Source of the DNA: Sphyrna mokarran
Taxonomy: Eukaryota
Direction: 5' to 3'
Assembly (NCBI GenBank): GCA_024679065.1
Contig: JAGIQG010000004.1
Location: 31,620,001-31,684,000 of the forward strand
DNA: 64,000 nt
Shown here: positions 1 through 63,945 of the stretch, one piece after another
How positions within the stretch are numbered: the stretch's first letter is position 1
Layout of the letters: each line of letters starts with the position of its first letter
Program-made: the position numbers and the translations under genes
The notes under the pieces: generated by a model
The model's input: only the letters and a program-made list of their open reading frames with translations
What the model was told of the DNA's origin: nothing
Databases searched by the model: none

Positions 1-1104
1 TCAATAATCCAAACTCCTTAAAGTATTAATAACCAAAACCACAAGCTCCCGAAACAATTTAACCTTGTGTAAATAAACATTGTGAAATTGACAGCATACA
101 TTAGAGAGCAGAAGCTGATGATCAAGCATCATTTAACCTGGGATGCAGATGTTTCAACAAAAATAATGGATGCCATGAGATTTTGCTAAGAGTCCAGACA
201 TCTATTTGTTGAGACACCTATATAACAAATGGACATGAAAGTATGATATCATGGCATAGGGGCATGAATTCCACAGGGAATAGGTGGACTGTCATAGCTT
301 AGTATGGGACATGAGAGATTATGGGAGTCAGTGGGAGGCATACTCCGGAATTGAGGCATGGATGGGGCCTGGGGAGCATGTTAGAGGAGACGGGCTACAG
401 GGGTGTGAGTAGAAGGGTCTTTGTGCGTTAATTGAAATTGGAACAAAGTTGCACAGCACTGGGGTAGATCTTTGAAACAGCCTGCCTTGACTGCTGGCAG
501 CCCCTGTGGTTACCTCTGCACATCTTCATGGGTTGGCTGTCCCAGCTCCATCCTTTATCCCCTGAAATGAAGAGCCCATTCTTACAAGTGCTTTCTACCG
601 AGGTGGGCAGGCTGAGTAAAAATGTTCCTGCGTCCCCTACCCACCTTTAAAATATCAATAATGGAAACAGCAAGTCCTTGAAACACTTAACCTTGTATGA
701 ACAAACATTGTGAAATTGACAGCAAAGATTAGAGGGTCTGAGCTGTCAATAATATAACATTTTCTTTGGGGTACAACTGGTTTGACCATAGTAATGGATA
801 ACTGAACTCTCAGCCAGGTATACATAATGAAGCTTGGCTGAGACTCTAGATTGCCTTTGGATATAAAACACAATCCATTAACAAGTATTAACAGTTTTGA
901 GATTGAAATACTTTGATTGTATTTTGTTTTTCTAATAATTCTGCCATAATTTGGTGAAAAGTTAATTTGTTCAATTTATATGGTGAACCATTGCAATAAG
1001 CAGTGGTGTGATCAGGTCATAGAAACCTTTCAACATGATTTCTAGAGACACACCTTTAGATTTCTTCTGAGCTTACTACCACACACTAAATATAGGGAGT
1101 TCAC

Positions 1105-1627
1105 AACAAAGAACAAAGAACAAAACAGCATGGGAAACAGGCCCTTCGGCCCAACAAGCCCGCACCGCCACCTCAATGTTCCCACTTCTACATGCGATCC
1201 CTGTCCATGTTTATAGATCTATGGATTAAAAACCAAATTTGAGACAATTTAGGGAGAATTTGTTTTGCCAATTAGCCTAAGAGCACATCTTTGGGATGTG
1301 GGAGGAACCGGAGCTCCCGGAGAAAACCCACGCAAGCACGGGGAGAATGCGCAAACTCCCACAGACACAGGCCCAAATCCATGTATCTGCACAGCACAGC
1401 GATAGTCACTGAGCTGTCGTGTTGCACATCAGATGGTCCAGGTCAAGCATACACTAACGATGTGAAGCAGTAGGATACTCTCGAAGAAGATCCAAGAGCA
1501 GTCCTCTCACGACCCATCGCGTGTATGCCCCTCATTAGACAACAAGGTGGACCAAAGCACCTGTAGGATAAAAACAAGTACATCATCTATTTACACACTT
1601 CCCAGGGACTCCCAAGGCTCATGATCC
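1105..1627 (-). other. CR1 3' UTR containing an embedded V-SINE-derived module (remodelled tRNA head, V-domain, CR1 tail)
   Basis: 1250-1370 matches the central core of the free HE1-type SINEs in this window. The same arrangement lies directly downstream of the ORF2 stop at 29047-29507 and in the copy at 7762-8235. Confidence 0.88.
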
Positions 1628-4430
1628 CTATTTTAAATCAGTTTTCTATAACCCTCCATTCCCATTCTGTTCATGTGCCCATCTAAGTATTTCTTAAATA
1701 ACTCCAGAGTACCTGCCTCCACCACTTTACTTGGCAGCGCATTCCATACCCCACCACCCTCTGTGTGAAAAAACTCCCTCTAGCATCCAAATTATACCTT
1801 ACCCCCCCTCACCCTAAGCCCGTGACCCCTCGTGCTATTTGAGTCCATCCCAGGAAAAAGCTTAGCCCTGTTTACTCTATCTATCCCCTTCAAAATCTTG
1901 TACACCTCTATCAGATCTCCTCTAAGTCTACGTCTTTCTAAGGAAAACAGTCCCAATTTGCCTAATCTCTCCTCGTAACTCAGATCTTCCATACCAGGCA
2001 ACATCCTGGTAAACCTCCTCTGCAGTCTTTCCAGAGTCTTCACGTCCTTCTGGTAGTAAGGCGACCAGATCTGGACACAGTATTCCAAATGAGGTCTAAC
2101 CAGCGTTTTATACAACTGCAACATTAAAGGCCAGCTCTTGTACTCTATACCCATTCCTATAAAGGCTAGCATACTATATGCTTTCTTCACAACCTTCTCC
2201 ACTTGCTCTGCCACCTTCAGAGACTTGTTCACCTGCACCCCCAGTTCCCTCTGCGTTTCTATACTCCTAATAGGTCTACCCTTTATCATATACCTCCCCC
2301 CTACATTTTTTCTCCCGAAATGCATCACCTCACATTTATCAGGATTGAATTCCATCTGCCATCTGTCTGCCCAAGCTACCAGCCTATCTATGTCCTGCTG
2401 CATCGCCTGACAATGCTCCTCACTATCCACAAGTCCAGCCATCTTTGTATTGTCTGCAAACTTGCTGATCACTCCACTTACTCCCTCTTCCAAGTCATTT
2501 ATATATATTACAAATAGAAGAGGTCCCAGTACCGAGCCCTGCAGCACTAGTGACCGACCTCCAGCTAGAGAAACACCCTTCCACTATTACTGTCTGTCTC
2601 CTATTACCAAGCCAGTTGCTTATCCATCTCGCTACCTGTCCTCGTATCCCATTTGCCTTGACCTTCTCGACTAACTTCCCATGAGAGACTTTGTCAAACG
2701 CCTTACTAAAATCCATATAGACAACATCAACAGCTCGCCCTTCGTCCACCGTTTTCGTCACCTCCTCAAAAAATTCTACCAGATTTGTAAGGCACGACCT
2801 CCCCTTAACAAATCCATGCTGCGTATCCCTAATCAGATTGCAACACTCTAAGTGCCTATACATCCTATCTCTAAGAATCCCCTCCAACAGCTTCCCTACC
2901 AATGACGTCAAACTCACCGGCCTATAATTTCCAGGGTTATCCCTACTACCCTTTTTAAACAACGGTACAACATTAGCTATTCTCCAGTCCTCTAAGACCT
3001 CACCTGTGTCCAAGGAAGAGACAAAGATTTGCATCAGAGGCCCAGCAATTTCACCTCGCACCTCTCTAAGCAGTCTGGGATAAATGCCATCAGGCCCTGG
3101 AGATTTATCAGTTTTAATGCTACCTAGAAGCTCTAACACTTCCTCCCTCAGTATGGATATTTCCCTCAACTGGTCCACAGCTCCCTCAGAGACAGGAGCT
3201 GTCAACAAGCCCCTCTCCTTCGTGAATACCGACGCAAAGTATTCATTCAGGATCTCCGCCATTCCCTCGGGCTCTAAGCACAGTTCCCCTCCTCTGTCCC
3301 TAAGAGGTCCGATTTTTCCTCTAACCACCCTTTTATTCCTAACATAGGAGTAAAAAGCCTTTGGGTTTTCCTTAATCCTATCCGCCAAAATCATTTCATG
3401 CCCCCTTTTTGCCCTTCTAACTCCCTGTTTGAGATCCCTCCTACTCTCTCTATATTCCTTCAATGCTGTCTCGGTTTCCAGCTGCTTTGACCTATCATAC
3501 ACTTCTCTTTTCTTCCTAACCAAGTCCTCAATATCCCTAGTAATCCACGGCTCTCTAATTCTACCTTTCCCATCTTTCCTCTTGGCTGGCACGTACTTAT
3601 CTTGCAACATTTTCAGTATTCCCTTGAAAGAGTCCCACGTGCCTAGTGTGGACTTACCCTCAAACAACCATTCCCAATCAATTTCCCTAAGTTCCTGCCT
3701 AATTCGACTGTAGTTAGCCTTCCCCCAATTCAGCACCCTGCCCCTAGGGCAACAAGCATCCTTTTCCATCTGTATCCTAAAGTAGACAGAATTGTGGTCA
3801 CTGTTAGCCACATGTTCCCCCACTACAACATCAACCACCTGCCCTGGCTCATTACTCAGAACTAAATCCAATATAGCCCCTTCTCTAGTCGGGCTAGCCA
3901 CATACTGTTCCAACGATCCTTCCAGTACACATTTTACAAATTCCTGCCCATCCAAACCCCCAGCTCTAAGTACTTTCCAATCCACCCTAGGGAGATTAAA
4001 ATCTCCCACTATAACGACTCTGTTCTTTCTGCACCTATCCAAAATGTCTTTACATATGCCTTCTTCAACTGCCCGTGGGCTGTTGGGTGGCCTATAATAC
4101 ACCCCTAGCATTGTTATTGCCCCCTTTCTATTCCTCAACTCCACCCACAGTGACTTCACTCCTAACTCCTCTGTATTGTCCTCCCTCTGCACTGCCGTGA
4201 TACTCTCCTTAACTAACAACGCCACTCCCCCACCTCTTCTGGACCTTCCTCTGTCACGCCTGAAACACTTATACCCAGGAATGTTCAGTTGCCACTGCTC
4301 CCCTTCCTTTAACCACGTCTCTGTCACTTCAACCACATCCAAGTTCCTCGCAAACATTAAGGCCCTAAGTTCATCCGTTTTTCCCATTACTCCTCCTCGC
4401 ATTGAAACAGACACACTCCAGATCTCCAAG
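1628..4430 (-). pseudogene. CR1 ORF2 (APE endonuclease plus reverse transcriptase), frameshifted
   Basis: Motifs TETWL, YYRPP, GDFN, SDH, KSPGPDG, NYRPVSL, QHGF, DFSKAFD, QGSVLGP, FADN (FADD expected) and RPHLEYC. Frameshifts lie near 4395 (CFNAR/GVMGKTDEL), 2545 and 1800; the natural stop is at about 1628. Confidence 0.95.
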
Positions 4431-4540
4431 ACCACTCGGAACCTCCTTCTCCCTGGTGCATCTCTTCTCATCCAAGCTTACTCTATCTCCCATCTCGCTC
4501 TCTACCGAGAGATTGGTCTCATCCCCTCCCCCCCTCCATA

Positions 4541-5485
4541 TTAGTTTAAATCCTGCCGAAACATTCCAGCTAACCTCCCAGCTAAGATATCCACACCCTT
4601 CCCATTCAAGTGTTTCCCATCCCTTCTGAACAGGTGCCCTTCTTTTACAAAGACTTCCCAGTTATCCACAAATATGAAACCCTCTGCCCTACACCAGTCC
4701 TTCAGCCACACATTCAGCTGTAGGATCTCATTTCTCCTGGCCCCGCTATTACCCGCACCTGGAAGCAGCCCTGAGATCGTCACCCTCGAGGCCCTGTTCT
4801 TCAGCCTGCCCCCCAACTCCCTGAACTGCCTTCTTATATCTTCCCTGCTCTTCCTTCCTACATCCTTCTCTCCTATGTGAATAATCACATCCGCCTTGGC
4901 CCCCTCACCCTTCAAAATGCCCTCTACCCTGTCTGACACATCTTGCACCCCTACTCCAGGGAGGCAAACTACCATCCTGGAATCCCGCCTTGGACCACAG
5001 AAGCGCCTATCTATTCCTTTAACTCTCCCATCCCCCACCACTATCTCCCTTCTAGCCCCTTTCCTCCCCTTTGAGGTACTCTGGTCCTTGAGCCTTGCCT
5101 TTTTTAACCCTCTGCCCTCGACATTTTGGGGGCTGCCACTGGGGAAGTCTTTGGACTGTCTCCCCTCTCCTTTTTCCCCTTCCTGACAGTAATCCACCTG
5201 TAAGGGTCAGGTTTCCCCCCCTTAGGCTCCGGGTCTGCTACCTTACTTTGCCTCCCTTCCAATGATTGCCTCGTTCTCCCTGACTAAAAATGCATCTTCC
5301 AATTGGCGCTCTAGTTGCTTGACCCGAGCCCTCAGATGCTGCAGCTCCAAACACTTGGCGCATACATGGACTTTCTGGAGAGGTCTCACCTCCAGGAACT
5401 CCCACATGTGACACCGTACACAGGTGAGGCGTCTTCTCTTAATCCCTGCCATTGTCATGGACACCTTTGGAGGTGTGAATTCCAA
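4541..5485 (-). pseudogene. CR1 ORF1 (CxxC...CxxC zinc finger, coiled coil, SGNH/GDSL esterase-like domain), frameshifted
   Basis: ORF 5243..5485 has CVRC...CAKC followed by LELQHLRARVKQLERQLE. ORF 4541..5197 has VVGDGRVKGIDRRFCG, CLPG, IHIGEKD and FRRDGKHLNGKG, matching the esterase blocks of vertebrate CR1 ORF1. The two pieces are in different frames. Confidence 0.9.
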
Positions 5486-6109
5486 TGGAAAACCAGTAGC
5501 ACACTGTGTCTAAGCCTGCTCTAGCCCAAGTCCTGGGAGCCAAAGCCCTTGTATCTCTCACTCTGCCTCCTTATTCACCCCGCTGCCCGCTCCCGACGCT
5601 GCCCGCTGTTTACTGCCACTTTCTCTTTATACTCCCCGGTTCCCTTCCCAGCTAGCCCCAGGCCTAACTACAGCAGCAAAAAGCACTCAAAAAAAGAGAG
5701 AGAAAAAAAAGCAAATTGAAAAATTCACTCAGCCACCAGCACTTCCAAACACTCTGTCCCAGAGAACAACATCAACATATTGATCCTAAATTCCCCAAGA
5801 TTTACAGAGCATGAATGTATCAGCCTACTGTAACACAAGGGAAAACTGGATGATATGTCTGACTTCCAGATTATCAACAATTGGGTGCAAAAATATCTGA
5901 AAAACATGGATGTTATCATCTAAGGATAATATGTGTTCATATTAGGCTTGCAAGCCTTCATGTGAGGCTACAGAGGAATTATAAAAGGAAATCAGGATTA
6001 TAGAGAAGAAGAAATGCTTTTGCTCATGGGGCTTTATTTGAAGATGCCTGCCACTGATGGCCACTTGGTCTTTTTGGGAAAAGCCCTTATTCTAGGAGGC
6101 TGAAGATGC

Positions 6110-7761: not shown

Positions 7762-8235
7762 GTACTTGTTTTTATCCTATAGGTGCCTAGGTCCACCTTG
7801 TTGTCTAACGAGGGGCATACACGCGATGGGTCGTGAGAGGGCTGCTCTTGGATTTTTTTTTTCAAGAGTATCCTGTGCTTCACATTGTTAGTGTATGCTT
7901 GACCTGGACCATTTGATGGGCAACACGACAGCTCAGTGACTATCGCTGTGCTATGCAGATACATGGATTTGGGCCTGTGTCTGTCGGAGTTTGTGCATTC
8001 TCCCAGTGCTTGCGTGGGTTTTCTCCAGGTGCTCCGGTTTCCTCCCACATCCCAAAGATGTGCTCTTAGGCTAATTGGCAAAACAAATTCTCCCTAAATT
8101 GTCTCAAATTTGGTTTTTAATCCATAGATCTATAAACATAGACAAGGATCACGGGTAGAGGTGGGAGCATCGGGGTGGCGGCTTGGGCTCGTTGGGCCAA
8201 AGGGCCTGTTTCCCGTGCTGTTTTGTTCTTTGTTC
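7762..8235 (+). mobile_element. 5'-truncated CR1 copy consisting only of the V-SINE-containing 3' UTR
   Basis: Reverse complement of 1105-1581 with high identity, ending in the (TTCTTTG)n tail. Confidence 0.93.
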
Positions 8236-21460: not shown

Positions 21461-21590
21461 AGGGGGAATTTTCCTGCCCCACCTGCCTCAGGAATTGTAT
21501 CAGTGTGATGGGGTGGGAGGGTGGAGGGAAGATAGAAATGGGCCATGCAAATGTCTGTTGACTTTGGGCAGGATTTTCCAGTTTTGGGAC
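21461..21590. mobile_element. Harbinger-type MITE truncated by a CR1 insertion
   Basis: GGGGGAATTTTCC start and internal GTTGACTTTGGGCAGGATTTTCC. The last 25-30 bp and the second TIR are missing. Confidence 0.6.
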
Positions 21591-21592
21591 GA

Positions 21593-22651
21593 CATAGAAC
21601 ATAGAACATTACAGCACAGAACAGGCCCTTCGGCCTTCGATGTTGCGCCAACCAATTAACGAAAAGCAATGACCCTCTAACCTAAACCATTTCCTTTTCA
21701 TCCATAAACTTATCTACTAACCTCTTAAACGCCACCAAACTTGGCACATCTACAACTGACGCAGGCAGGGCATTCCATACCCTTACCACCCTCTGGGTAA
21801 AGAACCTACCTCTGACATTCGTCCTATAACTACCACCCCTTAATTTAAAGCTATGTCCCCTCGTGCTAGCTTTCTCCATCCTAGGAAAAAGGCTATCACT
21901 GTCCACCCTATCTAAACCTCTAATCATCTTATATGTTTCAATAAGGTCTCCTCTTAGCCGCCTCCTTTCTAACGAAAACAACCTCAAATCCCTCAGCCTC
22001 TCTTCATAAGACCTGCCCTCCATACCAGGCAACATCCTGGTAAACCTCCTCTGTACCCTCTCCAATGCCTCCACATCTTTCTTATAATGTGGGGACCAGA
22101 ACTGCACACAATACTCCAAGTGCGGCCGCACTAGAGTTTTGTACAGTTGCAACATGACGTTGCGGCTCCGAAATTCAATCCCCCTACCAATAAAAGCTAA
22201 GACTCCGTATGCCTTCTTAACAACCTTATCGACTTGATTGCCAACTTTCAGGGATCTATGCACATATACACCAAGATCCCTCTGTTCATCAACACTATTA
22301 AGAGTCCTACCATTAGCCCTATACTCTACACATTTGTTATTCCTGCCAAAGTGAATTACCTCACACTTTTCCACATTAAACTCCATTTGCCACCTCTCGG
22401 CCCAGCTCTGCAACTTGTCCAAGTCTCTCTGCAAACTATAACACCCCTCTTCACTATCTACCACTCCACCGACTTTAGTGTCATCTGCAAATTTACTAAT
22501 CCATCCTTCAATACCCTCATCCAGATCATTTATAAAAATTACAAACAGCAGGGGCCCCAAAACAGATTCCTGAGGTATACCACTAGTAACCGAACTCCAC
22601 GATAAATAATTTCCATCAGCCCGAACTCCATGATGAATAATTTCCATCAAC
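21593..22651 (-). mobile_element. Young 5'-truncated CR1 with uninterrupted ORF2 C-terminus
   Basis: ORF 21682..22653 (SGIPQESVLGP, KFADDTK, RPHLEYC), short 3' UTR and (TTCTATG)n tail. Confidence 0.97.
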
Positions 22652-22879
22652 ATACATGGAACTTATGAGGAACTTACATGGATTCTCTATCTGTAAACTA
22701 ATCAGGATTTTAATTGCTCACCAATTTTTGTTCCAAAACTGCATCCGTGAATTAAATTTCTGCTTGCCAATTGCAGAATGAGAATTAATTTTTGTTAATA
22801 GAAAGGGAAGAAATCTATGGCAGGAATTTCTTGGTGAGGGCCAGAGGAAATGTATCATTTTGGCTTTGATCCTCTTGCC

Positions 22880-28299: not shown

Positions 28300-30235
28300 A
28301 ATTATTGCAGATAATCATTTGTGTTATGCTTTTATCAGTTTGTTTGTCCAACATCCTGTCCTCAATGAGATGCAATTTCCAATTGTTAAATATTGAGAAA
28401 ACTAAAGCAATCATTGTGTCCCCATCACAAATGTGGTACCATGCCGCTATTTCATGCCTGGCTATCACACTGAACCAGACTATTCATAGCCTTGGTGATC
28501 CATTCTGCTCCAAGCTGAGTGATTGACCTCAGAACACCTTCATTTATATGGAAAGCTTACTTCACCTCCTATCTCTGCCTCAGCATCTCCTTTGCTGAAA
28601 CTTCTATCTATATTTTTTTTTGCCTCCAGACTGGGCTGTGCCAATGATTTCTGTGGTGGATTTGCTCATTTAACCATCCGCAAATTTTGACTCATGTTAG
28701 CAATCCCCTCAACTATCACCTCATATCTCTGTTGGCTCACATTAATTTAAAATTTTCATGTTTGTGCTTTCCTAAGTCTGTTCAATGGTCTCAATTTCCT
28801 ATCGTTTTAACCTAGACACTCAGTAACTCTGTAACATCTGTTAACTCCCCCTCAGAAGACTGCGTAGCTCTGGCTGGCTGCTTAGGCCTCCACCCTTGGT
28901 GGCTAACCCTACCTCTAACCCTACACCTTCAATCACCCAGGTACTCTGCTGTAGAATTGCCTTCATAAGTTTCTCTGTCACTTTCATCACCCAATCTTCT
29001 TTAATATTGTTCTTCTGCCTTAATACAAATTTATGAAGTTCTTTTTAGAGCAACACAGCACGGGAAACAGGCCCTTCGGCCCAACGAGCCCGCGCCGCCG
29101 TCATAACTATATAGTAACAATTCCATTATCCTATTCTAATTTTAGGTTATTCCTAATATGGAAGAGTCTCAATGTAGGGACAATTTGTTCCCCAATCAGC
29201 CTAAGAGCGAATTTTTGGGATGTGGGAGGAAACCGGAGCGCCCGGAGAAAACCCACGCAACCACGGGGAGAACGCGCAAACTCCCGCAGACACCGGCCCA
29301 ATTCCAAGTGTCTGCACAGCTACAGTGATAGTCACTGAGCTGTCATGGTGCCCTTCAGATGGTCCAGATAAAGCACTCATTTACGACATGAAGCACCAGG
29401 CAACCCATGAATCAACATCCAAGAGCTGTCCTCGCACCACCTGCCGAATGCATGCTACTTGTTGGTCAAGTATGGACCGAATTACCTGTGGAAAAAAAAA
29501 GCCATAGTTAAACAGTCCTACTATATCCCTCTATCTGCATAACGCTCATGTGGCTGTCCAAGAGACCCTTAAACAGCCCTAGCGTGACTGCTCCCACCAC
29601 CTTACTCGGCAGTGCATTCCACACCCCCACTACCCTTTGTGTGAAAAACTGCCCTCTAATATTCGTCTTATACATAGCCCCCCTCACCCTAAGGCCATGA
29701 CCCCTCGTCCTATCCATTTCTGAAGGTGGAAAAAGTTTACCACCATTTACTCTATCTAAACCCCTTATAATCTTATACACCTCTATTAGATCCCCTCTAA
29801 GCCGACATCTTTCAAGGGAAAACAACCCCAGTCTATTCAATCGTTCCTCATAAGACAGTCCTTCCATACCAGGCAGCATCCTGGTAAACCTCCTCTGCAC
29901 TCTCTCCAAGGACTCCACATCCTTCCAATAATACGGCGACCAGAACTGGACGCAGTATTCCAAGTGAGGCCTAACCAACGTTCTATACAATTGCAACATC
30001 AAACTCCTACTCTTGTATTCTATACCCTTTTCTATGAAAGCTAACATTCTATACGCTTTCTTTATCACCTTCTCCACCTGTGAAGACACCTTCAGAGACT
30101 TGTGAACCTGCACCCCCAAGTCTCTCTGCGTCTCTATACTCCGAATAGTTTTACCTTTTATCCTATAACTCTCTTCTACATTTTTGAATGTATTTACACA
30201 TTAATGGTGCTAAATAAATGCAAGTTATTGTTTTT
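28300..30235 (+). mobile_element. Old L2-type LINE 3' part, interrupted by the CR1 at 29047-30180
   Basis: Decayed LLNIEKTKAI...SRLGCAN motifs; an L2-type tail GGTGCTAAATAAATGCAAGTTATTG resumes at about 30200. Confidence 0.6.
29047..30180 (-). mobile_element. 5'-truncated CR1, second subfamily with V-SINE-containing 3' UTR
   Basis: Intact ORF2 C-terminus 29508..30119, then a roughly 460-bp UTR with the same hairpins, V-domain and CR1 tail as 1105-1627 but unrelated spacers. Confidence 0.95.
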
Positions 30236-41477: not shown

Positions 41478-42058
41478 CTGGTGGCACAGTGATTAGCATT
41501 GCTGCTTCACAGTGCCAGGGACCCAGGTTCAATTCTTAGCTTGGGTCACTGCCTGTGTGGAGTCATAGAATCCACAGTGTAGAGTCCTACAGTGCAGAAG
41601 TAGGCTATTCAACCCATCAGGTCTGCAATCCCACCCAGGCCCTATCCCCATAAACCCATGCATTTACCCTAGCTAATCCCCCTGACACTAAGGGGCAATT
41701 TAGCATGACCAATCCACGTAATCCACATGTCTTTAGACTGTGGTAGGAAATCCATGTCGACACAGGGAGAATGTGCAAACTCCACACAGAGAGTGACCCA
41801 AGCCAGGAATCAAACCGGACTCCTGTGCTGCGAGACAATAGTGCTAACTAATGTGCCATCATGCAACCCCAGTCTGCACATTCTCCCTGTGTCTGCATGG
41901 GTTTCCTTCCAGGGACTCCGGTTTTCTTCTGCAGTAAGAAGACATGCTGGTTAAGTTCATTGGCTATGCTACATTTTCTCTCAGTATACCCGAACAGGTG
42001 CTGGATTGTGGTGGCTTGGGGATTTTCACAATAACTTCATTACAGTGTTAATGTAAGC
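41478..42058 (+). mobile_element. Type-B-tail V-SINE interrupted by an antisense CR1-tail V-SINE (41565-41865)
   Basis: The head ends at TGTGTGGAGTC (41564) and resumes at AGTCTGCACATTCTCCC (41871). The inner element is a complete minus-strand HE1-type copy. Confidence 0.85.
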
Positions 42059-55204: not shown

Positions 55205-55510
55205 TCTTGAATCATTGAATCCTACAGTGCAGAGGAAGGCCATTCAGCCCATCAAGTCTGCACTGACCATAACCCCACCCAGCCCTATCCCTAGAACCTC
55301 ACGCATTTACCCTACTAGTCCCCCAACGCAAAGTGACAATTTAGCATGGCCAATCATCCTAACATCTTTGGACGGTGGGAGGAAACCAGAGCACCTGGAG
55401 GAAACTCACACAGACAAGGGGAGAATGTGCAAACTCCACACGGACAGTGACCCAAGCCAGGAATCGAGCCTGGGTCTTTGGCACTGTGAGGCAGCAGTGC
55501 TAATCACTTT
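55205..55510 (-). mobile_element. HE1-type V-SINE
   Basis: Complete antisense copy. Confidence 0.85.
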
Positions 55511-62830: not shown

Positions 62831-63945
62831 TCATAGAGTCACAGAGGTTTACAAAATGGAAACAGGCCCTTCAGCCCAACTTGTCCATGTCACCCTTTGT
62901 TTTTAAAACCCTTAAACTAATCCCAATTGCCCGATTTGGCCCATATCCCTCTATACCCATTGTACCCATGTAATCACCTAAATGCTTTTTAACAGATAAA
63001 ATTGTACTCGCCACCACCACCACCTCTGGCAGCCCATTCCAGACACTTACCACCTTCTGTGTGAAAAAATTGCCCCTCTAAACACTTTTGTATCTCTGCC
63101 CTCTCACCTTAAACCTATGCCCCATACTTTGGGAAAAGATATCTACCTTGTCTATGCCCCTCATTATTTTATAGATCTCTAGAAGGTCACCCCTCAGCCT
63201 CCTACGCTCTAGAAAAAAAAGTCCCATATTCAGCCTCACCTTATAACTCAATCCATCAAGTCCCGGTAGCATCCTAATAAATCTTCTCTGCCTTCTTTCT
63301 AGTTTAATAATATCCTTTCTATAATAGGGTGACCAGAATTGCACACAGTATTTCAAGTGTGGCCTTGCCAATGTCTTGTACAACTTCAAGAAGACATCCT
63401 ACTTCCTGTTAATGTTCTGACCGATGAAACAAAGCATGCCGAATGCCTTCTTTACCACTCTGTCCATCTGTGACTCCACTTTCAAGGAGCAATGAACATG
63501 CACTTCTAGATCTCTTTGTTCTGTAACAATCCCCAATGCCCTAACATTAACTGAGTAAGTCTTGCCTAGTTCAATTTACCAAAATGTATCACCTCGCATT
63601 TATCTAAATTAAACTCTGTCTGCCATTCGTCAGCCCACTGGCTCAATTGATCAACATCCCACTGTAATTGGAGACAACCTTCCTCAGTGTCCAAAATGTC
63701 TCCAATCATCTGCAAACTTACTAACCATGTCCCCTATATTCTCATCCAAATCATTAATATAAATGACAAATAACAGTGGGCCCAGTACCTATTCCTGAGG
63801 TACACTGCTGGTCACAGACCTCCAGTTTGAAGAACCACTCTCTACAACCACCCACTGACTTCAGTCAAGATGCCAATTTTGTATGCATTTAGATACCTCA
63901 TCTTGCAACCTGTAAGACTTAACTTTATGCAACAACTTATCATGC
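62831..63945 (-). mobile_element. 5'-truncated CR1, moderately decayed
   Basis: ORFs 63078..63389 (RPHLKYCVQFWSPYY) and 62871..63053, SVPQE*VLGP, and tail CTCTGTGACTCTATGA. Confidence 0.93.

Follow-up and report, generated by a model that had tools for sequence, protein, structure and literature searches.

In the 64,000-nucleotide stretch of the Sphyrna mokarran genome analysed here (the window), two LINE copies each carry, on the minus strand, a pair of RNA hairpins derived from the tRNA-like head of a SINE. The question raised by this locus is whether a former Pol III promoter has been turned into a structured RNA element that serves its carrier, as proposed in a first-pass annotation, and what such an element might do.

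Two hairpins within a larger predicted fold

The minus-strand strings on which the proposal was based were confirmed at 29286-29343 and at 1361-1417. Each locus was predicted to fold into two adjoining hairpins, with z-scores of -3.7 (29286-29343) and -2.4 (1361-1417) against 200 dinucleotide shuffles. Both copies sit in the 3'UTR of CR1-type LINEs with an endonuclease-reverse transcriptase (RT) ORF2 and an esterase ORF1. The substitutions noted between the two copies, together with the one-base difference in the loop, proved to be the majority state in 30 family-A and 20 family-B genomic copies. Since the differences are seen in the majorities of both families, they are family-level: they are fixed between families and do not reflect decay of the individual copies.

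Pairing in the stems, which had been described as kept, is not complete in every family: the upper stem of hairpin 1 is mismatched in 3 of 13 (two mismatches in A2, one each in C1 and C2). As for the double U-G to A-U change, it concerns the terminal pair beside the loop, where A.A is found in D1 and A.G in D2. Hairpin 1 (29316..29343, minus strand) corresponds to the D-arm/A-box region of the SINE head, and hairpin 2 (29286..29315, minus strand) has a SINE-derived base.

As a unit, the two hairpins account for only part of the fold: both form, but the predicted structure extends further. In 141-nt windows, a four-way junction followed by a further hairpin was obtained, with z-scores of -4.0 and -4.1. 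In this model, the closing helix P1 joins the 5' end of the SINE to the V domain; hairpin 1, hairpin 2 and P4 lie inside it, and P5 comes after it. The two hairpins are thus arms of this predicted four-way junction. In the copy at 29 kb, on the minus strand, the 5' strand of P1 (the 5' end of the SINE head) lies at 29344..29351, the V-domain hairpin P4 (29266-29285) and the 3' strand of P1 (29257-29265) together occupy 29257..29285, and P5, predicted as a V-domain hairpin with an internal loop, lies at 29222..29256.

This fold belongs to a module of ~300 nt, whose boundaries can be read directly from the sequence and which runs in the 3'UTR from a splice-acceptor-like site through an upstream domain, domain U, to the SINE head and the V domain. 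In the same copy, again on the minus strand, the candidate 3' splice-site-like start (YTRAY, pyrimidine tract, CAG) lies at 29486..29512, domain U, predicted as a three-way junction with a long irregular hairpin, at 29361..29478, and a remnant of the SINE body 3' of the V core at 29175..29221. The module lies ~190 nt upstream of the CR1 tail, whose 3' motif (29046..29096, minus strand) is common to module-less CR1 families. This copy, of family A1, is 5'-truncated and keeps the 3' end of ORF2 (29508..30200, minus strand) as a 230-aa stop-to-stop frame, for which Pfam gave no match; a longer A1 copy, L221, carries both endonuclease and RT. The hairpins at 1361-1417 belong to a near full-length family-B copy (1101..5700, minus strand, 5' boundary approximate) with an ORF1 esterase at 4541-5206, a broken ORF2 at 1792-4477, the acceptor AG at 1561-1562 and domain U at 1435-1553. 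A third copy of the module, also of family B, occupies 7762..8235 on the plus strand. A single pattern running from domain U into the V domain gave 39,315 matches in the genome, against 0 for the reversed control. Contigs of three other organisms (J, F and G) covered the module; H yielded none, and the run of E did not reach it. Depth being low in F and G, an absence carries no weight here. Metagenome contigs gave 0 matches for one pattern.

A probable route from a free V-SINE to the CR1 3'UTR

A majority sequence of the free SINE was established from 92 copies, those scoring at least 70 among 112 SINE-class matches, and was corrected by hand for CpG sites. This local SINE, which we take to be the V-SINE HE1, its domain presumably being the V domain, reaches dozens of copies in 264 kb. 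About ten copies or fragments lie in the window; the one at 55349..55455 (minus strand, matched part only) represents the comparison class. At 41761-41927 two free SINEs lie tail-out on opposite strands, the second beginning beside the head of the first.

The fold predicted for the free-SINE majority comprises P1, hairpin 1, a long arm with a B-box loop, P4 and P5. The suggestion that the structure was built after capture is not supported by this fold: equivalents of hairpin 1 and of the base of hairpin 2, enclosed in the same four-way junction, are already formed in the free SINE, an outcome that the first-pass annotation had itself named as a refutation. These two parts thus existed before the capture, and only the distal half of hairpin 2 is new in the CR1 families. 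In families D, B, C and A of CR1, the B-box arm has undergone a 19-nt deletion and a bulge has been absorbed to give a helix of 8 bp, which remodelled hairpin 2. In 7 families, 55 of the 56 cells of this helix are paired, and U-G, U-A and C-G all occur at one of its positions; in intermediate copies the B box has decayed but the long arm persists.

Relative to the free SINE, the A box has changed and the B box is missing, as had been noted. The A box is altered in 13/13 LINE-borne families, the B box is decayed in six and deleted in seven, the T-loop is lost in seven, and a T4 run occurs within the V region in 12/13. A V-SINE is recognized by a tRNA-derived head in which both Pol III boxes are intact, and the LINE-borne copy lacks such a head; its V region is near-identical to the body of the local free SINE, with which it was compared. 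Because the Pol III boxes are lost and 12 of the 13 families carry the T4 run, the promoter role is gone. Of the proposed conversion of a promoter into a structured RNA, the origin from a captured tRNA-headed SINE, the decay of the boxes and an apparent selection on structure stand, but the post-capture building does not.

The module was not confined to CR1. A variant in the contig of another organism led to 18 genomic matches, two of which had a fuller SINE head, and these two copies led to 46 distinct copies in six further families, five of which (E1-E5) are not CR1. In copy L335, an intact ORF of 1346 aa matches R2 structures (PDB 9nl2, 9dou and 9nl3) with E~1e-217, against 1e-30 for L1. 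The single ORF of the element includes an RT and is related to R2 proteins, its zinc-finger, Myb and endonuclease motifs having been assessed by visual inspection only. Its copies were not found inserted at the 28S rDNA site: no Rfam rRNA match was obtained in 10 R2-like loci, rDNA arrays possibly being missing from the assembly, and the 3' flanks are diverse beyond TAG, with which 20 of the 28 flanks recovered from 30 loci start. A short motif at the start of the copies is presumably 28S sequence from upstream of the R2 site. On its sequence features, the element is classed as R2-like, dispersed and non-site-specific. The lineage comprises at least five subfamilies, with a 3'UTR of ~830 nt and one intact ORF (L335:2473-7400; G000:C783; also L319-L338 and L399-L428). 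Several R2-like copies are inserted inside CR1 ORF2 at recurring positions, one site being occupied in L320, L323, L337, L338, L408, L410, L411 and L428 and a second region in L409, L418, L416, L327 and L334; these positions would be either a preferred target or a re-copied composite.

The host LINE was assigned, by what we take to be diagnostic features of ORF1, ORF2 and the tail, to the CR1 clade. Its ORF2 matches PF03372, PF14529 and PF00078 (apurinic endonuclease and RT), and its ORF1 matches the esterase-like PF13472 and PF17182 on window positions 4541-5206, as found in CR1. Domain U is common to the R2-like element and missing from the free SINE. The link between the clades is found in family F, a CR1 in which, between the end of ORF2 and the CR1 tail, come in turn what is left of the R2 coding end, the module and the R2 3' end; its three R2 blocks are collinear and 82-90% identical to an E1 copy. 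Because family F still carries both R2 coding and 3'-end remnants, a route from SINE to R2-like element to CR1 is favoured, and the SINE-derived module likely reached CR1 by way of an R2-like element. The head and body of a V-SINE would have entered the R2-like 3'UTR; one 5'-truncated R2-like copy would then have inserted between the ORF2 and the tail of a CR1, and deletions would have stripped nearly all of the R2 sequence but the module, shortening the B-box arm to hairpin 2. The R2 remnants of family F, the presence of the module in the dispersed R2-like element and the loss of the Pol III boxes are direct sequence observations, while the order of the steps comes from nesting rather than from ancestral reconstruction. 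As the donor SINE may differ from today's, some of the SINE-to-E1 changes may predate the capture.

The composite with the module founded at least eight CR1 subfamilies. In the CR1 ORF2 tree the module is confined to one side of a branch, its label changing once (support 97/96), the rows being 28 module-bearing (at most five per family, from 44) and all 33 module-less ones, with a midpoint root only. Since module-less CR1 lineages exist in the same genome, where they share the 3' tail motif, CR1 as a class can do without the module. In the window, module-less CR1s with short 3'UTRs and related tails, which constitute a natural control class, are seen at 21589-22662 (minus strand) and in the 15640 and 62858-63479 regions; the copies at 21.6 kb and 63 kb share the tail motif of the module-bearing families. 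L346, L352-L354 and L363 represent one or more further old module-bearing CR1 subfamilies, which have a distinct upstream spacer and stand outside the 13 families. L114 and L152 combine SINE-type sequence 3' of the V core with a LINE-type tail motif and are possibly tail-swapped SINEs.

Probable selection on pairing

Conservation of pairing was evaluated on reference folds obtained from single sequences, namely the free SINE for V, E1 for U and D2 for the short hairpin 2. Over the 13 families, 584/636 and 525/594 cells were paired, against 36-49% for slid partners. Changes between families were then counted on a minimum spanning tree built from 14 majority sequences, gains being counted against and 8 mismatch-to-mismatch changes omitted, and were compared with the private post-insertion mutations of 208 copies, from which 568 cells with shared variants were skipped; the 16 of 185 CR1-type copies left unassigned to a family were dropped. 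Pair-keeping changes represented 63/120 of the changes between families and 253/736 of the private mutations (p=2e-4), and pair-keeping double changes 12/120 and 10/736, respectively (p=6e-6). By region, the excess was found in domain U (p=0.008), P1 (p=0.04) and hairpin 2 with the long arm (p=0.013); the 13 families being related, these tests are not independent trials and the shuffle counts are not probabilities.

Furthermore, alignments of real copies, one per family, were analysed. For domain U, whose structure was predicted from that same alignment, 95.4% of positions were paired, 9 of 42 pairs had changed on both sides and the covariation term was -3.35. For domain V, 92.8% were paired and 5 of 36 pairs had changed on both sides; the slid controls of these alignments gave 36-56%. 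In addition, domain U (~120 nt) folds with z-scores of -2.8 to -7.3 across the 13 families. When families A1 and B are compared, differences concern 3/65 positions in the V core, 9/66 in the P1-hairpin region and 34/120 in domain U, and 114/255 four-fold (silent) sites of ORF2.

Evidence against selection was also obtained. Hairpin 1 alone shows 4 kept against 7 gained or lost pairs, that is, no excess of pair-keeping changes. RNAalifold, one of the checks suggested in the first-pass annotation, gave domain V a covariation term of +0.52, hence no net bonus, and its structure no longer contained the upper stem of hairpin 1. Randomisation of base identity was non-significant at the observed transition bias (22/30 of the changed sites), with p=0.06 for U and p=0.62 for V at 0.7. 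Drift simulations reached p<0.05 in 9/9 comparisons when positions were free and in 3/9 when they were restricted to variable columns. The V core is mostly invariant and therefore uninformative about pairing, and since the tests compare present-day families, the changes are without direction. From these comparisons, the module can be described as moderately covarying, the covariation in the two hairpins alone appears weak, and the RNA structure has likely been kept by selection.

Possible roles of the module and comparison with known systems

We tentatively favour, at slightly under an even chance, the reading in which the module, inherited from a V-SINE via an R2-like element, is a putative cis-acting RNA element whose V core is offered to a candidate host factor. 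The near-invariant V core would be presented to this factor, which would stabilise or route the RNA of the element, while the tRNA-derived arms would act as a tolerant scaffold. The persistence of one core under three distinct transcription and reverse-transcription systems favours a host-side RNA step; the binding of Alu by SRP9/14 provides an analogy. A broader version seems doubtful, though a real possibility: the V domain and tRNA head would together make a portable RNA device, shaped as a four-way junction, that binds a conserved host factor and boosts the RNA of its carrier retroelement. A Pol III SINE, an R2-like element that had moved out of the rDNA and a CR1 LINE with a retained splice acceptor would have co-opted this device one after the other.

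This acceptor-like site suggests another role, in which the module is a structured terminal exon: its 3' splice site would be spliced or would attract splicing factors, yielding a short non-coding RNA or improving 3'-end formation and export. YAG|G is present in 13/13 families and a branch-point-like YTRAY at -23 to -27 in 11/13, despite surrounding bases so variable that the -32..-1 sequence differs at about half of its sites between lineages. With a crude, home-made score, the acceptor-like AG ranks first of 497 sites in a CR1 B copy and first of 329 in an A1 copy, but only sixth of 380 in an R2-like copy. The deletions in families A and C stop just upstream of the site. In the R2-like element, a donor-like site at the stop codon is found in 9 of the 12 copies matched, and the two sites may outline a 3'UTR intron; this donor is however located inside coding sequence and is lost in CR1 family F. 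In L335:6555-6745 the overlap between the donor-like site and the stop codon lies ~180 nt upstream of the acceptor-like site, and a TACTAAC branch-like motif is seen in E3 and E4. No recurrent spliced retrocopy was found: families E2-E5 of the R2-like element gave 0 matches, and none was present among 30 of 169 matches. Among 30 of 65 further matches, one join of ORF2 to the acceptor (L358) and one nested insertion (L368) were obtained; L358, a single copy with 5-nt microhomology and unique among 40 scored matches, was rejected as a spliced retrocopy, as was L368 on account of its nesting. The recurrent CTAAG variant was likewise discarded as a splice product, being a one-base deletion that changes the acceptor CAG to AAG (L166, L170, L174, L176, L178, L179 and L188, family B); it occurs in ~28 of 100 among the matches listed, and the AAG copies are possibly a small sub-lineage with a weakened site. 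Among the joints listed, with four contig-only runs tentatively labelled RNA, none linked an upstream donor to the acceptor, and only 2 of 78 copies have their 5' end at the site. Evasion of HUSH by the splice site was set aside, splice sites alone having given no protection in the published assays seen (PMC8770142). A terminal-exon role is unlikely in our view.

Still less probable is conservation of the V core as a DNA element, such as a transcription-factor or enhancer site, with the hairpins as inherited by-products. The core is near-invariant in stems and loops alike, with little covariation, and enhancer roles of conserved SINE domains have been discussed (PMC6887750, in the part seen), but double changes occur in P1 and domain U, three pair types occupy one position of hairpin 2, and domain U folds in all 13 families. 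The module could also be a near-neutral passenger, its V core homogenised by gene conversion with free SINEs and its apparent covariation produced by transition bias. The great density of free SINEs, the non-significant identity-randomising tests and a SINE-type base at one diagnostic site in family C2 agree with this; on the other hand, LINE-specific bases of the V region persist in 12 or 13 of 13 families, domain U has been kept though it has no SINE counterpart, the module has remained where the captured R2 sequence beside it has diverged or been deleted, and the test against real private mutations was significant. We regard it as improbable, to much the same degree or slightly more so. Binding of ORF2p by the hairpins, as proposed at first, or their use in template recognition, would fit the position of the module in the 3'UTR, ~190 nt upstream of the tail, and R2 proteins have been assayed with their own 3'UTR RNA (PMC12247875, in part). 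However, it is very unlikely, because module-less CR1s share the tail motif and the module persisted alongside two unrelated RT proteins; recognition in L2-type LINEs is moreover reported to map to the 3' tail (PMC1636434 and PMC4176376, as far as their text was seen). Hardly credible, finally, is a self-cleaving ribozyme or tRNA-like processing signal, which a compact multi-way junction of tRNA origin might recall. Cleavage would part ORF2 from its tail, yet 57 of 78 copies extend upstream through the module, and the 5' ends of the 78 show no pile-up; self-cleavage is unlikely for these reasons and from the Rfam result. The Rfam search found no family for the module, with 0 matches at gathering score in the window and a best E of 4.2 in 29000-29600; snoRNA and pre-miRNA readings, with best E values of only 4-6, were rejected, ARAGORN detected no tRNA in the window, and the T-loop is lost in seven families.

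The V domain has here been freed from Pol III transcription and from LINE parasitism, yet remains near-unchanged in two unrelated autonomous retrotransposon clades, which points to a host-side RNA function. The system offers a structure model, natural variants and assayable carriers for this domain, and if the portable device existed, these two elements of the shark would provide the first autonomous systems in which to test why V-SINE domains are conserved in animals. In the relay from SINE to R2 to CR1, a 3'UTR module is seen passing from one retrotransposon clade to another; it also brought to light a vertebrate R2-like lineage that is dispersed and has kept at least one intact ORF. Taken by themselves, the two hairpins are the least surprising part of the finding.

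The reason why SINE domains such as V are conserved is treated as an open question in the parts seen of two papers (PMC6887750, PMC4758252). In the literature, Repbase and Dfam being outside the scope, no description of a V-SINE within a CR1 or R2 3'UTR was found. The HE1 V-SINE and the HER1 CR1 LINE of sharks and rays have been tabulated together (PMC3747384, in part), and, as here, a tRNA-headed V-SINE then stands beside CR1 LINEs in one genome. In that known system, the SINE borrows the tail of the LINE, whereas here the LINE 3'UTR holds the SINE head and V domain, the head being without working Pol III boxes. Spread of the V domain by another class of mobile element is also known from MER6/MER6A, a Mariner-type MITE with a V-SINE (PMC6887750, same part); that element is, however, a non-autonomous DNA element with a headless SINE, while in the present case the head is kept as a predicted structure, two autonomous RNA-intermediate clades are involved in series and signs of selection on pairing are observed.

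With regard to structure, P5 is probably the published Vhc stem-loop, with which it was matched by description and not by sequence: Vhc is a predicted hairpin with an internal loop in the 3' part of the V homology, apparently not preserved in fish V-SINEs according to the text seen (PMC4758252). In contrast, the stem-loop is predicted here in the SINE and in all 13 LINE families, and it adjoins a four-way junction from head to V domain, no description of a junction having been found in the part of that paper seen. Among R2 elements, R2NS-1_SMed and R2NS-1_CSi are non-site-specific flatworm families, and some R2s carry 28S-derived sequence in their 3'UTR (PMC5035012, in part). The R2-like element resembles them in its R2-clade protein, dispersed insertion and foreign 3'UTR sequence, and differs from them in its occurrence in a cartilaginous fish, a weak TAG preference, frequent landing in CR1 and a SINE-derived module. 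Lastly, LINE-1 chimeras with U6, tRNA or Alu are likewise fusions of RNA or SINE sequence to a LINE, and those with U6 are described, in the part of the source seen, as not self-propagating (bioRxiv 10.1101/2025.02.02.635956); the composite described here, unlike them, became the founder of several CR1 subfamilies (at least eight).
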